Shown piece after piece: positions 21,501 through 27,500 of a DNA stretch of 64,000 nt (position 1 is its first letter; the number at the start of each line of letters is the position of its first letter). The position numbers were made by a program. This DNA is from Escherichia coli. GTDB lineage: Bacteria; Pseudomonadota; Gammaproteobacteria; Enterobacterales; Enterobacteriaceae. The stretch lies in assembly GCF_044324785.1 (NCBI RefSeq), contig NZ_CP172128.1; one strand, given 5' to 3'.

Positions 21501-24500
21501 AGCATGTCCCTGATTTCAAACCAGGTGGCAGCATTCCACCATCCAGCGTCATGTTGTTCTGCGATGCCACTCTCTTCCAGGGCGAGATCCACAAGGGGCT
21601 CTGTTCCTGCACGGTACAGTCTGGGGTTGTTTTCGCCATACTCCCTGAAGGCCAGATCCACCAGGTTGCTTATGATTTGCCGGGTGTCTCCGGGATTACA
21701 GGGCTGACCGGTGCCGGTATCCACGCACAGTGCGCAGAGTACAGATACCATGAAGTTCTTTTCCGGGGTGGCGGGTTTTTTAGCACCGTACATCACATCA
21801 AACAGGTTACGGGTGTGTTCCGGATCATTGCTCAGAATGATCCCCACGGCTTCGTCCTTTCTCTGCTCCGGCAGGCTGTCACGGATAAGCTGTACCAGTC
21901 CCTGTGCACTGAATCCCTTGTCGATATAGGCAATGAAAGGCAGGTTCTTCTGGGCTGAGGCTATCTGGATCTCCGACAGTGCGTTGATGAGTACCGATTT
22001 GCCCAGACCGGGTGCGCCGGGCGTCAGTTCCGTGTGCTTGTTCTGTTGTGACGATGCCAGTGCGACCTCCCATGCAGAGCCGTCCTCGGTGTGCATCATC
22101 AGATTTCCCTGTCCCCGCCAGACAGAGCCGGCCCTGTTCAGGGGAAACAGGGAAAGGGCGTGTGAAAGGGGCGGGTAAAGGGGGACTGGACCGGAACCGT
22201 GGGAGGCCGCCAGAACCGTGTTCACCCAGGCACGTCTCGGATCACCGAAGGTGGTGGTGGTGCCGCATACTCCCCAGCCTTCCAGCGCAGATTTCAGGAG
22301 CGCCTGGTTGCGGGTACAGACTTCCCGGCTGTTTCCCCATGTGGTGGCAACAATGGTCATGATACAGACCGGATCATGTTTGTTGATGTCATTCAGCATC
22401 ATCACCGAGTCATACATGGGCCGGAGAGGGGAAATAAAGCTGCTGTAGGTCAGCAGGGTTTTCTTGACCCCAAGCGCCTTCATGCCGCCGGGCATCAGAT
22501 CCATCCGGATACGCCAGGGGATTGCGCGGGGCACATCCCTGACCAGCTGGTTGAATGTCCGCAGATTCTGGGGGGGCAGGGTAATGGCGACCATACCGTG
22601 CCAGAGGTCACCGGCCTTTATCAGGCTGCCGTGTGTTTCAGGCTGTGTGGTGAATAACTGCAGATTCAGCGACGGTGCGTGGAATACAGAGGTATCCTCG
22701 CCCTGTCGCCAGCCGGCAGGACGGGCATCTTCAGGCAGATGAGGCTGCCATACTGCAGGTGTGCTGTTGCGCTCCAGTTGACGGCGGATTTCCCGTCCCA
22801 CTTCATGAATATCCATCAGGCGAACCAGCAGACCATCAGAATCATGTGTCAGGGCCTGCTCCAGCGTGTCCAGAAAGGCGTCATGCCGTATTTTGAGTGC
22901 GGAAAGTGTCCAGCGCCATGGATCCTGCGCAAATCGGGCTGGCGGAGCGTGTTCAGCGAGTTTCCTGATACGGGTCTGGTGGTCCTTGCGATCGGTCCGG
23001 CTCAGCAGTTCTTCAGAGCTCCAGACGGTCAGCCAGCAGCGTTCCCGGACAAGCCAGGGGGTGAGCGTGGTGACTTTTTCATCCAGAACGTCCTGAAGCA
23101 GGATCCCCGTGCGTGCGATGGATTTTCGCTGGGGTAAGAGCATGGCTTCGATTTCATCCCTTCCACGCTCCGGATCGCGTTCGAAAACAAAACTGATTTT
23201 GTGACCGGTGTTTTTATAGGCAGTGTTCATTCGCTCTGCCAGCGCTGTAATCAGTGATTCCAGTGTGCCGGGGGCTGTCAGGTCCGGGTTTTCATCCATT
23301 TCTTTCAGGGCACCGCTGATTTCAAAGACGGAAAGGTAATACCCCTGTTTTGTGGTGGCAATGTAGGGGGCTTTCAGCCAGGGGCGGCGTTCGCGGTCCT
23401 GCTGGTCCAGACCGATGACGGTGTGCAGATCACAGTAATCGGGGAAGAATGCGGAAACGGAATACCGTGACAGGGTACTGATACAGTCTTCAATGGCAAA
23501 AATAATGCGGTTGATATTCATGGCATGGGGCACTCCGGTAAGGATGAATCATCACGGTCTTATATTTTTTGATGCCACAGCAGGGGATGTGGCATGAAAA
23601 AACAGCAGAGAAAATAAATAATCTGTTGAGGGGCAGGTGCGTATTTCTGTAAGCGTCAACGGAGCACCGTATTGACGCTTATTTATTGGTGAGTACTACG
23701 TTCCATGGCAGGAGTTCATCAACTCGGTTGGAAGGCCATTCCGGCAGTACGCTCAGGATATGGCGCAGATACGCTTCCGGAGCGATACCGTTCAGACGGC
23801 AGGTGCCGATCAGCCCGTACAACAGTGCTCCACGCTCGCCGCCGTGATCGCTGCCAAAGAACATAAAGTTTTTCTTTCCGAGACAGACTGCACGAAGCGC
23901 TCTTTCCGCAGCATTATTATCCGCCTCCGCCAGACCGTCATCACTGTAATAACAGAGGGCATCCCACTGATTCAGTACATAGCTGAACGCTTCGCCCAGT
24001 CTGGATTTTTTCGACAGCGTACCATTCTTCTCCACCATCCATTCATGCAGCGACGTCAGTAACACTTTGCTTCGCTGCTGCCTGACGGCAAGACGCTCTG
24101 ACTCCGGTAATCCCCGTATTTCATCCTCGATGGCGTACAGTTCACTGATTCGCTTCAGGGCTTCTTCTGCCGTCGCACTTTTGCTGCTGATGTATACATC
24201 GTGGATTTTTCGCCGGGCATGGGCCCAGCACGCAACTTCTGTCAGTGCACCACCTTCACGTTCTGCACTGAACAACCTGTCGTAACCTGTGAACGCATCC
24301 GCCTGCAGGATACCCCGGAAGGGGCGGAGGTGTTGCTCCGGGTGTTTCCCCTGCCGGTTCGGCGAGTACGCGAACCAGACCGCTGGAGGAGATGACGAAC
24401 CCACATTGCGATCATCCCGGACATACGTCCAGATACGCCCTGTTTTCGCCTTTTTCTGACCCGGTGCCAGTACCTTTACCGGTGTGTCATCAGTGTGAAC

Positions 24501-27500
24501 CTTGCGGGTGTTCATTACATAACGGTACAGGGCATCATTCACCGGTGTCATTAACTGGCAGCACGCGTCAACCCAGTTGGAGAGTAAGGCCCGGCTCAGT
24601 TAGACACCCTGGCGGGCAAAGATTTCACTCTGACGATACAGTGGCAGATGTTCGCAGTATTTTCCCGTTAACACGCGGGCAAGTAATCCGGGGCCCGCGA
24701 TACCACGCTCTATCGGGCGGGACGGCGCCGGTGCTTCAACAATACAGTCACATTTTGTACAGGCTTTTTTTACCCGTTCTGTGCGGATCACTTTCAGGGC
24801 ACTGCTCACCAGTTCCAGCTGTTCAGCGCTGACTTCCCCCAGATAATCCAGCTCACCGCCACACTCCGGGCAACAGCTTTCTTCTGGCTCCAGGCGGTGT
24901 ATTTCACGGGGAAGGTGTGCCGGTAACGGACGACGATGGCGCGACTGTCGCAACTGGCGGGGAACCTGAGGATCGTCTTCCCGCCCACTGTAACGATCGC
25001 TGTCCTGCTCACGTTGTTTCAGCAGAGCCTCAGCCAGTTCAACTTCACGACGCAGTTTTTCAGAACGGGTACCGAACAGCATCCGGCGCAGTTTTTCTAT
25101 CTGAGCCCGCAGATGTTCTATTTCCCGTTCATCTTCTTCGATCTTTTCTTCGGCACGTGTCAGTGCAGAGCGCAGGAAGGCTTCCGTCTCTTCAACCAGA
25201 CTCAGTTGCTGGTCTTTCTGACGGAGGGCTTCAGCCTGCTCAGAGAGCAACCTTTCCAGCTCTGCGATGCGAATGAGGTATTTCTGACTCATGACCGTTT
25301 TTATAATGCGGTCAGGAGTTTTTTACAACATTGTCAGTGAGTTACGGCTGGATGTTTTTGGCTGACGCCAGTCCAGCTTATCGAGGAGCATTGCCAGTTG
25401 CGAGCGGGTAATGGATACCTTGCCGTCACGTACCGCAGGCCAGATAAACTGGCCTTCCTCCAGGCGTTTGGTGAACAGGCACAGACCATCAGCATCAGCC
25501 CAAAGAATTTTGACGGTGTCACCCCGTCGGCCACGGAAGATAAACAGGTGACCGGAGAAGGGATTATCATTCAGCACATGTTGTACCTGTTCTCCCAGTC
25601 CGTTGAAGGATTTACGCATATCGGTAACGCCGGCAACGAGCCAGATACGGGTACCTGATGGGAGTGAGATCATCTTCCCCTCCCGGTCAGTTCACGGATC
25701 AACACTGTGAGCAGCTCTGGCGATGGATTTTCCAGCGTCATGTTACCGTGACGGAATTCCACCTTGCAGGAACTGGCACTGACTCTGGTCTGAGTGGAAG
25801 TGGATAAAGACGGCGCAATGGCCGCCACAGGTTCTTTCTGCTCATCCGGCGTTATTTCTACAGGTAATAATTCAACGCCAGTGTCAGAAGAGGTCGTTAC
25901 CGGAAGACGCCGCGAAACACGCCCTTCGTTCTGCCAGAGCCTGAGCCATTTGAAAATAACATTATCATTGACGCCATTTTCACGTGCAATCTGTGCAACA
26001 CAAGCTCCAGGTTGTGATGCCAGTTCCACCATACGAAGTTTGAATTCATTCGAATAGTTTTTACGAGGTTCTTTTCGCCAGTCCTGTAATTCCATACTTA
26101 GATGTCCGTCTATATCAGATGGGCGTCTAAGTTACCAATTCTCGTCTGATGGCTACATACGGCGGTCAGTTTACGCTTACGTATTTCTGTGTGATTACAG
26201 TAAATAATAAAAATGTAATAAGGTGGAAACACGCTGTCAGCGTAGTGAATTTACTGGCGGATAAGTGATTTTATTAATATGTACAACAATACATTTTCTT
26301 TTTTCATTTCGTATAAATACAGGGGGGATATAAAAGAAACGGAGACTGCAGAGACAGAGATGCAGTTGTTTTCCCCGTTTCCTTAATGAAAATTCACTCA
26401 GGGGTGTGGCCGGATAATTATGCCGGGCGCTTAATTCCCTGTTGAACTGAAGTATTCCGGCAATATTCAGCAGTACGCCGGCCAGCCTGCCGTCATCATC
26501 CCGCAGGAAACGACGGAGTAGCCGGTGCTCTTCTTTGGCGGTACTGTCAGTTTTTCCGGCCAGGTGTGCGTGGATGAGTGTTATAAGCGTCTCCGGGGAT
26601 ATGCGGTGAATTTTCATCATTCTTCTCCTGATTTTGTCGGGGGCACACCCGGATAGATAAACTGCTGGCGGCGAATGAAAAAATCACAGAAGGGCATATC
26701 CGGTAATTCCGGGAGACCGGATACGGCAATATCCATCCATGAGAGATAGTTATCGACGCTCACTGTGACGGTGATGCTGTTATGGGTACGGGATCTTTCA
26801 TGAATTTCTGCAGCCAGAAAGAGCAGCCAGCCGCCGTTAAATGCCGGGTGGCGGAGAATGAACCGGGCAATCTCTTTTTCAACTCCATCAGGCGGAATAT
26901 CGTCCGTCAGTGTCCGGATAATAAAGTGCCGGAATGCATCAGCGGTGAACTGATATGCGGCAGAGAGGGTATTCATTTTTGTTCCTCTGTAAGTTGAGAG
27001 GGCCGGCAGAACGTCATCGGTACCGGTGTGGGAGGGCTGCATCACCAGACGAACTCCCTGTCAGGAAACGAATCCGGCAGCAGAATGAGCGCCACCCCGT
27101 CCATTTTCTCCCGCAGTGTTTTACGCTGTGCCGGCGGCCAGCGGCGCAGTGCATCAGCAAAATCCGCCGGACGCCAGGTGCGAAATTTCTCCTCAACGGC
27201 CAGGCGGTTCTGTACCAGGGCATTCAGTACGGCCCGTCCCTGTCTGACTCGCTTACGCTCATCGCTGAAAATTTCCTTCAGTGCCCGTGCATTGAGAGCA
27301 ACCACCGAGGCCGGATGCAAATCAGGGAGCCAGACCATCACCCCCTGTGCGGCAGCGTAGCCGTTCAGGCAGTGCCAGGCGTGGCAGAAGGCACAGAGAT
27401 GAAAGGGCGGGCCTTCCGGCTGCAGCAGTTCACTTTCATTTTCGCTGAGTGCATCTGTTGTGACGATTTGTGACTTTTCCACATGACGCAGGGCCAGTCG

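Follow-up and report, generated by a model that had tools for sequence, protein, structure and literature searches.

The prototypes IS679 and IS66 are, as Han et al. reportedly found in 2001, three-gene elements of the IS66 family, and all three genes are said to be required. Polar insertions of IS elements are known classically from IS1 and IS2 in gal and lac. For the IncI1 plasmid pESBL, traU-traX were found to be required for transfer (PMC4288162), and a homologue of TraB is needed for the transfer of R64 (PMC11880322).

The window, i.e. the entire stretch of 64,000 nucleotides analysed here, is identical to the E. coli plasmid pLH10-b-1-A (NZ_CP100531.1, IncK2/Z; 0 mismatches over 14,532 nt), a virulence and colicin plasmid from poultry (avian) E. 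coli. MOB-suite typing yielded MPF_I and IncK2/Z; the label 'conjugative' in PLSDB is a prediction from gene content. Annotation and MOB-suite together revealed the composition of an MPF_I operon, with co-linear traE...traY-excA, an IncI-type relaxase, pil genes and a shufflon. Apart from the locus described below, the remaining tra, trb and pil genes in the window are all intact.

ISEc23 in the gap upstream of traU

The following features define the locus:

20477..23521, minus strand: traU, 1,014 aa, the gene that follows the IS (annotated in the identical record)
23641..23648, no strand: target-site duplication GTATTTCT, copy on the traU side (sequence)
23649..26180, minus strand: complete ISEc23 (IS66 family), 2,532 bp (hundreds of ISEc23-annotated copies cover 100% at 99.8-100% identity)
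23649..23672, no strand: terminal inverted repeat, tnpC-proximal (inverted-repeat analysis)
23679..25292, minus strand: tnpC, DDE transposase, pseudogene (translation, Pfam, comparison with pEC129_1, RefSeq 'internal stop' note)
25323..25673, minus strand: tnpB, IS66 Orf2-type accessory protein, 116 aa, intact (Pfam TnpB_IS66, E=1e-36)
25670..26095, minus strand: tnpA, HTH-domain accessory protein, 141 aa, intact (Pfam HTH_Tnp_1, E=5e-12; RefSeq WP_000422741.1)
26157..26180, no strand: terminal inverted repeat, tnpA-proximal (inverted-repeat analysis)
26181..26188, no strand: target-site duplication GTATTTCT, copy on the traT side (sequence)
26237..26617, minus strand: hypothetical, lineage-specific ORF downstream of traT, upstream neighbour of the IS (annotation)

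The original prediction placed an IS66-family element in the tra operon, and the analysis bears this out and specifies the element as ISEc23. Three consecutive minus-strand ORFs carry the domains of the family according to Pfam, namely tnpA (HTH), tnpB (PF05717) and tnpC (DDE_Tnp_IS66 with zf-IS66 and LZ regions). The inverted repeats are imperfect, 24 nt long and 83% complementary, with GTAAGCGT... starting both arms, as is typical for the family (imperfect repeats of about 20-30 bp, GTAAGCG start). Read outward on the minus strand, the tnpC-proximal repeat ends in ...GTTGACGCTTAC and includes a -35-like TTGACG. The predicted gtatttct duplication was recovered as GTATTTCT, perfect on either side and of the 8 bp usual for IS66 elements; a chance match of one given 8-mer pair is expected in about 1 of 65,000 cases. 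Ten other examined ISEc23 copies are also flanked by 8-bp duplications.

The name of the element derives from RefSeq and PLSDB annotations and not from the ISfinder reference entry: many copies labelled ISEc23 there match it at 99.8-99.9% identity with 100% coverage. ISEc23 is annotated in plasmids and chromosomes of E. coli, Shigella and Klebsiella, and the traU-site copy shares with it the length of 2,532 bp, the GTAAGCGT... inverted repeats, an 8-bp duplication and the gene order tnpA-tnpB-tnpC. Compared to the intact copy of pEC129_1, the traU-site copy differs by 3 nt (99.9% identity): it has E231* and A504 (D in pEC129_1) in tnpC, and one silent change. With IS679 and IS66, the element shares the three ORFs, a DDE transposase with N-terminal zinc-finger and leucine-zipper regions and the 8-bp duplication, but ISEc23 is another member of the family.

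The target lies in the 176-bp gap separating traU from the small ORF downstream of traT, for which no match was found in Pfam or NCBIfam. The predicted intergenic location and the co-orientation of the IS genes with the operon are thus confirmed, both being encoded on the minus strand. The distance of about 115 bp to the traU start holds for a GTG at 23533, whereas the annotated ATG (23521) is 127 nt from the end of the IS. Downstream, annotation agrees with the predicted series of genes, in which traU is followed by traV, traW, traX, traY and excA; the minus strand encodes all six. Taken as a single event, the insertion is ordinary and of minor importance: it concerns a known and common E. 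coli IS, a deposited and annotated plasmid and a transposase pseudogene flagged in RefSeq. No relevant report emerged from the literature, whether under the names of strain and plasmid or under IS66 combined with traU or traT.

Recent transposition of a transposase-defective copy

Excision of 23649-26188, i.e. the IS and one duplicate, rebuilds base for base the uninterrupted site of IS-free relatives, as present in about 370 related plasmids. This is the outcome expected for the simple transposition that had been proposed, and the suggested comparison with an uninterrupted relative gave matches to pTB-nb2 and pS30-1. The contiguous reconstructed sequence of 1.6 kb was found in 218 records and its 211-nt core in 372 of 447, two of them at 100% identity. 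One of the exact matches over 211 nt is pS30-1; its backbone is only 96.5% identical, so that it is not the direct ancestor and was rejected as the immediate 'before' state.

The occupied junction was detected once among 72,556 PLSDB plasmids and once among 5,426 complete genomes of E. coli. Since no second record has it, the insertion is a recent, private event and not an ancestral trait. The original prediction had named an ancestral, universally present IS at this site as the observation that would speak against it, and one occupied record compared to about 370 empty sites is the opposite pattern. An old, lineage-wide IS, or its arrival by recombination instead of transposition, is effectively refuted. 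Such a history conflicts with the rarity of the junction, with the perfect duplication and exact restoration of the empty site and with the identity of the IS to a sister copy on the same plasmid, while support for it was not found in any of these comparisons. Judged by them, we conclude that ISEc23 recently transposed into the gap upstream of traU, duplicating GTATTTCT, as an event private to this plasmid.

The transposase gene of this copy is disrupted. Codon 231 of tnpC is an in-frame TAA (24602-24600), where intact copies have GAA (Glu). The four Pfam domains of tnpC are recognisable (zf-IS66, 3e-12; LZ_Tnp_IS66, 1e-11; DDE_Tnp_IS66, 7e-75; DDE_Tnp_IS66_C, 3e-15), but the stop splits the zf-IS66, LZ and DDE_Tnp_IS66 domains and interrupts the DDE domain. 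The copy therefore lacks the intact transposase ORF of an autonomous IS66-family element and belongs to the family by descent. Due to the nonsense codon E231* it is non-autonomous and, as read from its coding sequence, unable to move by itself.

A second ISEc23 copy of pLH10-b-1-A (record 19925-23902) lies inside IS1414 with the target-site duplication CGCTGTTT and is identical to the traU-site copy, including the same SNPs. Among the best matches listed, the E231* allele occurs only in pLH10-b-1-A (two copies) and in three French plasmid records, NZ_OY754359.1 (pF1022-2), NZ_OY757114.1 (pS30-1) and NZ_OY757127.1. In pF1022-2 it is located at the same IS1414 site, again with CGCTGTTT. The window contains a further, unoccupied IS1414 copy:

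5285..5292, no strand: unoccupied target aaacagcg within another IS1414 copy (paralogous to the IS1414 holding the sister ISEc23)

The presence of the same defective allele twice on one plasmid suggests that a transposase acting in trans probably generated the traU copy. It would derive from the E231* allele of the sister copy by copy-retaining transposition, with the ISEc23 transposase supplied by another copy in the cell. Evidence for transposition activity of this copy is indirect, namely the same allele at two sites with different duplications; alternatively, gene conversion between IS copies could have spread the allele. ISCro1 at the window start was rejected as transposase donor, as it has no GTAAGCGNNNNC end within the window and no basis for cross-mobilisation of ISEc23 was seen. 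The E231* copies clearly illustrate, at the level of genome sequence, the copying of a transposase-null IS. The tnpC pseudogene, the sister copy of the allele and the recurrent target described below were not part of the original prediction.

Repeated insertions in the traU leader

Two features characterise the sequence between the IS and traU:

23563..23604, minus strand: hairpin of the traU leader whose stem is flanked by T6/A6 (z = -2.5; conserved in L003, L004, L005, L009 and L010)
23596..23648, no strand: stretch of about 54 bp with five independent ISEc23 insertions (comparison of junctions in relatives)

Independent ISEc23 insertions, with differing junctions and in both orientations, occupy the same 54 bp in four other I-complex plasmids. 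Converted to window positions, the five target 8-mers begin at 23596, 23616, 23619, 23641 and 23642, and each of the five alleles is known from one record. Under an even spread, 0.016 events would be expected (a rough figure), which corresponds to a P(>=5) of about 1e-11, or 0.025 when 100-fold local enrichment is allowed. The clustering as such is thus established, and the four further insertions suggest a local hot spot in the AT-rich 54-bp stretch beside the conserved hairpin.

A target consensus was sought in about 20 target 8-mers (including nine loci from a genome-contig scan and eight chromosomal copies). The 8-mers are AT-rich (mean GC 0.32, 16 scored) and most contain an A3/T3 run. 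Such a consensus has little force here. It was rejected as the cause of the hot spot, since no strict motif is shared among them and the preference is too weak. An Rfam scan of the entire window gave no match inside or adjoining the IS. After the insertion, the hairpin stays beside traU. It was discarded as a canonical intrinsic terminator, because on both strands a T-run precedes and an A-run follows the stem.

A broader reading, which we put forward tentatively as a possibility, is that in IncK/B/O/Z/I-gamma plasmids ISEc23 truly prefers the 54-bp stretch of the traU leader, more than 100-fold over random, and that the insertions recurring there act as a natural modifier of conjugative transfer, probably as a down-shift, with routine trans-mobilisation of transposase-dead copies. 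Since ISEc23 hits it recurrently in plasmids of clinical importance, the leader offers a natural system for the study of target choice in the IS66 family.

Expression of traU-excA and comparison with known systems

Transcripts that start at tra promoters further upstream or at the promoter of the IS itself probably extend into traU-excA, so that expression of these essential transfer genes would be weakened rather than abolished. Partial read-through is the outcome we infer in preference to a loss of transfer. Within the IS, terminator-like sites on the sense strand are limited to one 5-bp stem, below the shuffle count, and a promoter and terminator scan of 23300-26700 gave counts no better than shuffles and no decisive site. 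The insertion puts 2.5 kb more between a candidate promoter at 26240-26212 and traU. A hybrid promoter at the IS end facing traU was dismissed: the inverted repeat provides TTGACG, but the flanking sequence at a distance of 16-18 nt downstream, CTGCCC with its neighbours, does not constitute a -10.

Alternatively, the IS could be strongly polar, mainly by Rho termination in the untranslated 3' part of tnpC, leaving traU-traY silent and the plasmid transfer-deficient. The insert of 2.5 kb does lie upstream of genes essential for IncI1 transfer, and translation of tnpC ends early, so that about 920 nt immediately before traU stay untranslated, which favours Rho-dependent termination and hence polarity. 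On the other hand, the IS genes run in the direction of the operon, the IS is devoid of a convincing intrinsic terminator, and its own promoter points towards traU. The occurrence of all five alleles as singletons fits dead-end lineages or a transfer cost, but recent neutral events are likewise expected as singletons. Polarity of the Rho-dependent type may in addition be suppressed by an RfaH-like factor:

62659..63165, minus strand: traB, NusG/RfaH-like, candidate operon antiterminator (RefSeq product name; RfaH similarity, E=2e-9)

The similarity of TraB to RfaH is weak (37 bits compared to a curated cut-off of 124). A search for the canonical RfaH ops element GGCGGTAGNNTG found none; the one match with 1 mismatch is on the wrong strand, and such matches are fewer than expected by chance. 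On balance, strong polarity appears rather unlikely.

Even less probable is the absence of any effect on transfer, in which case the 127-nt leader still attached to traU, with its conserved hairpin, would contain a promoter or regulatory element that drives traU-excA. Leader and traU are conserved as a block across I-complex lineages, with homology ending 11 bp past the target, and no intergenic gap in the traL-excA run exceeds the one upstream of traU. Moreover, all five insertions, in either orientation, are hairpin-distal and keep at least 75 nt of the leader. However, neither the scan nor direct reading revealed a sigma-70-like -35/-10 pair on the minus strand in 23522-23648, a result that argues against a leader promoter and for polarity. 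About 70 I-complex plasmids have wholly different sequence from 4 nt upstream of the traU ATG, indicating that the leader is not universally needed.

Taken together, we consider it highly probable that a recent and private ISEc23 transposition, of an E231* allele presumably mobilised in trans, struck an apparent hot spot and would permit read-through with weakened expression of traU-excA. The insertion could alter the spread of an avian E. coli virulence and colicin plasmid, and the leader is also suited to the study of IS polarity in an operon with an RfaH-like factor.

The operon resembles the MPF_I systems of R64 and pESBL in carrying traO-P-Q-R-S-T...traU-V-W-X-Y-excA on one strand together with the regulators traB and traC. 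It differs from them in two additional small ORFs between traT and traU in the IncK2/Z lineage, and in the 138-bp traU leader, which is present in this lineage but absent from R64/pESBL-type plasmids. As in the classical polar insertions of IS1 and IS2, an IS is positioned between the promoter and the distal genes of a long operon. In contrast to these, ISEc23 is intergenic and co-oriented, and an RfaH-like factor serves the operon.

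Identity of the element and its insertion site

The window corresponds to positions 105273-169272 of pLH10-b-1-A (NZ_CP100531.1), an IncK2/Z, MPF_I plasmid of E. coli LH10-b-1 from poultry faeces in Switzerland, with no mismatch in the 14,532 nt compared. As stated in the original prediction, an 8-bp duplication, GTATTTCT, flanks the element at 23641-23648 and 26181-26188. The 2,532 bp between the two copies have the following features:

23649-23672 and 26157-26180: imperfect terminal inverted repeats of 24 nt, 83% complementary, each starting with GTAAGCGT
26095-25670, minus strand: tnpA, ORF with Pfam HTH_Tnp_1
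25673-25323, minus strand: tnpB, ORF with Pfam TnpB_IS66
25292-23679, minus strand: tnpC, ORF with Pfam zf-IS66, LZ_Tnp_IS66, DDE_Tnp_IS66 and DDE_Tnp_IS66_C

The succession tnpA-tnpB-tnpC and its Pfam domains are the architecture of the IS66 family, to which the element had been assigned, and all structural characters of the family are present save an intact transposase. In plasmids and E. coli genomes, hundreds of sequences labelled ISEc23 match it over the full length at 99.8-100% identity, and at least 80% of the element was found in 2,488 of 5,426 complete E. coli genomes. Judged by its sequence, the element is ISEc23, a known IS66-family member.

The window copy is defective. An in-frame TAA at 24602-24600 replaces codon 231 of 537 in tnpC and falls near position 36 of the 284 in the Pfam DDE domain profile. 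The intact ISEc23 copy of pEC129_1, which differs from the window copy by 3 nt in total, has GAA (Glu) at this codon. In RefSeq the window tnpC is listed as a pseudogene, annotated 'internal stop'.

According to the record annotation, the minus-strand order is traO-P-Q, a DUF6750-family ORF occupying the traR position, traS, traT, two small hypothetical ORFs, the IS, traU-V-W-X-Y and excA, which agrees with the predicted intergenic site upstream of traU and co-orientation with the tra genes. The predicted distance of about 115 bp holds for a GTG at 23533, apparently the start then assumed, but is 127 nt to the annotated ATG (23521). TraU (20477-23521; 1,014 aa) yielded no Pfam match at E ≤ 0.01 and no NCBIfam match at E ≤ 0.001; in other records it is annotated as ATP-binding or conjugal transfer protein. 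The small IncK2/Z ORFs between traT and traU (127 and 141 aa; 26237-27042) matched neither Pfam nor NCBIfam. Homology across I-complex lineages ends 11 bp past the target site (26189-26199, rightwards), and in about 70 plasmids the sequence is wholly different from 4 nt upstream of the traU ATG.

Empty-site queries, consisting of the sequence minus the IS and one duplicate, were used in a 1.6-kb version and a 211-nt core version. The former was contiguous in 218 plasmids, while the core matched 372 of 447 records, two of them at 100% identity. pTB-nb2 (IncK2/Z) and pS30-1 align unbroken across a single GTATTTCT, as expected for the simple transposition proposed originally. Among 72,556 PLSDB plasmids and 5,426 E. 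coli genomes, the occupied junction was found only in NZ_CP100531.1, indicating that the IS is neither ancestral nor universal at this site. The insertion upstream of traU is, on these alignments, simple, recent and private.

Sister copy and probable origin of the traU copy

pLH10-b-1-A is a mosaic plasmid. Its cargo includes colicin B/M genes and sugar-utilisation modules, and it carries many IS elements (IS1, IS3, IS21, IS91, IS100, IS110, ISCro1). A truncated additional nikB (record 63322-64809) is present besides the full relaxase gene at 95657-98359. The two hok/sok-type loci sit between excA and the trb region, and a PK-repZ pseudoknot is typical of I-complex replication control. Further features of the window are:

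711-868, minus strand: STAXI RNA (Rfam, 70 bits), inside ISCro1 tnpA
4263-5471: IS1414 copy with the EAST1 enterotoxin gene astA (4978-5091), transposase flagged with an internal stop
10539-10628, minus strand: AgrB antisense RNA (Rfam, 50 bits), between trbA and a nuclease gene
13818-14124 and 14538-14845: pair of hok/sok-type loci in tandem, both accompanied by a Hok/Gef ORF (Rfam sok, 123 and 120 bits)
63839-63988: PK-repZ pseudoknot (Rfam, 177 bits) at the window end, a short way upstream of repA, which lies at the record origin

A second ISEc23 (locus L030, record 19925-23902) lies outside the window within an IS1414 adjoining an autotransporter gene. It has its own 8-bp target-site duplication, CGCTGTTT, and is interrupted by a 1,428-bp ISEc45. 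It equals the window copy without differences, nonsense codon included, except for the stretch at the ISEc45 junction, near which the two alignment pieces overlap. The French plasmid pF1022-2 carries the same allele, with 1 nt different, at the same IS1414 site and without ISEc45. The paralogous target in the IS1414 of the window is empty (5285-5292); other parts of the plasmid contain a further IS1414 copy as well as fragments. Since the E231* allele is common to all three copies, the nonsense mutation is older than the duplication. The traU copy would then have been made from a transposase-null ISEc23 with the donor copy kept, the transposase probably coming from a different ISEc23 of the same cell. 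As an alternative to such supply in trans, ISEc23 copies may have undergone gene conversion.

The ISEc45 (IS110 family) copies at L030 (20145-21572) and at L003, a traU-leader locus of another plasmid (4399-5826), are identical at 1428 of 1428 positions. Both are inserted at exactly one ISEc23 position (window-equivalent about 23852-23868, in tnpC) of different alleles on different plasmids, which suggests that ISEc45 is site-specific for a sequence within ISEc23.

Recurrent insertion of ISEc23 in the traU leader

Junction queries in both orientations revealed four further ISEc23 insertions in the traU leader of other I-complex plasmids:

C. koseri P1 (IncI1/B/O): duplication TAATATGT, window-equivalent 23619-23626, same orientation as the window copy
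pNMBU-W12E19_01: junction after window-equivalent 23623, far end rearranged, same orientation
pC16EC0241-1 (IncK2/Z): duplication TATTTCTG, 1 bp off the window's target, opposite orientation
pEC-16-35-4 (IncI-gamma/K1): duplication GAAAAAAC, 23596-23603, overlapping the hairpin A-tract arm, opposite orientation
Locus junctions: L003 4179/8156; L004 4176; L009 3702/6233; L010 3656/6187

Including the window copy, five insertions in both orientations fall within about 54 bp (23596-23649), two of them just 1 bp apart, and each is known from one record. They are independent, since positions, orientations and IS alleles differ. With all 4,953 PLSDB occurrences of ISEc23 distributed evenly along plasmid DNA, this stretch would receive about 0.016 insertions in roughly 450 records (P for at least five about 1e-11; 0.025 even granting 100-fold local enrichment; rough calculation). 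Sampling the 447 records at even intervals gave only one other partial leader match; judging from the sampling step, about ten more interruptions, whatever the IS type, may have been missed. About 70 short leader matches were rejected as insertions, as their lineage has another leader.

The clustering may result from targeting of DNA structure or from tolerance of insertions at this stretch. Its GC content is 38% (window 53%), and it adjoins a conserved hairpin at 23563-23604, a GC-rich 8-bp stem extended by T6/A6 (U6-stem-A6 on the tra transcript). As a terminator the hairpin was rejected, its shape being wrong in both directions (z = -2.5). The roughly 20 8-mers targeted by ISEc23 are AT-rich (mean GC 0.32, 16 scored), most with an A3/T3 run, and share no strict consensus.

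Possible consequences for transfer genes and standing of the finding

Apart from the insertion no lesion is visible, since every other tra, trb and pil gene of the window is intact. The insertion may well cause a partial reduction with read-through into traU. Four features favour read-through: the IS genes share the orientation of traU; a 5-bp stem within tnpB is the sole terminator-like site on the sense strand of the IS (shuffled sequence has more such sites); traU keeps its leader, hairpin and ribosome-binding region unaltered; and a NusG/RfaH-like protein, TraB, is encoded on the plasmid. The R64 TraB homologue is needed for transfer and was grouped with the antiterminator PrfaH (PMC11880322). 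Severe polarity on the downstream tra genes appears rather unlikely, although about 920 nt of tnpC past the premature stop are untranslated directly upstream of traU, and the best intergenic promoter-like match (26240-26212) is now on the far side of the IS. Also counted in favour of polarity is that traU-traX are needed for transfer in IncI1 pESBL (PMC4288162). The 127 nt left between IS and traU hold no recognisable promoter, which speaks for polarity and makes it improbable that a leader-borne promoter leaves the insertion without effect.

Taken together, the finding is real and its original interpretation is supported. The insertion is an ordinary event, with a known element and a plasmid already deposited and annotated. 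Modestly new in comparison are the null allele, apparently copied in trans, and the traU leader as a hot spot for ISEc23.
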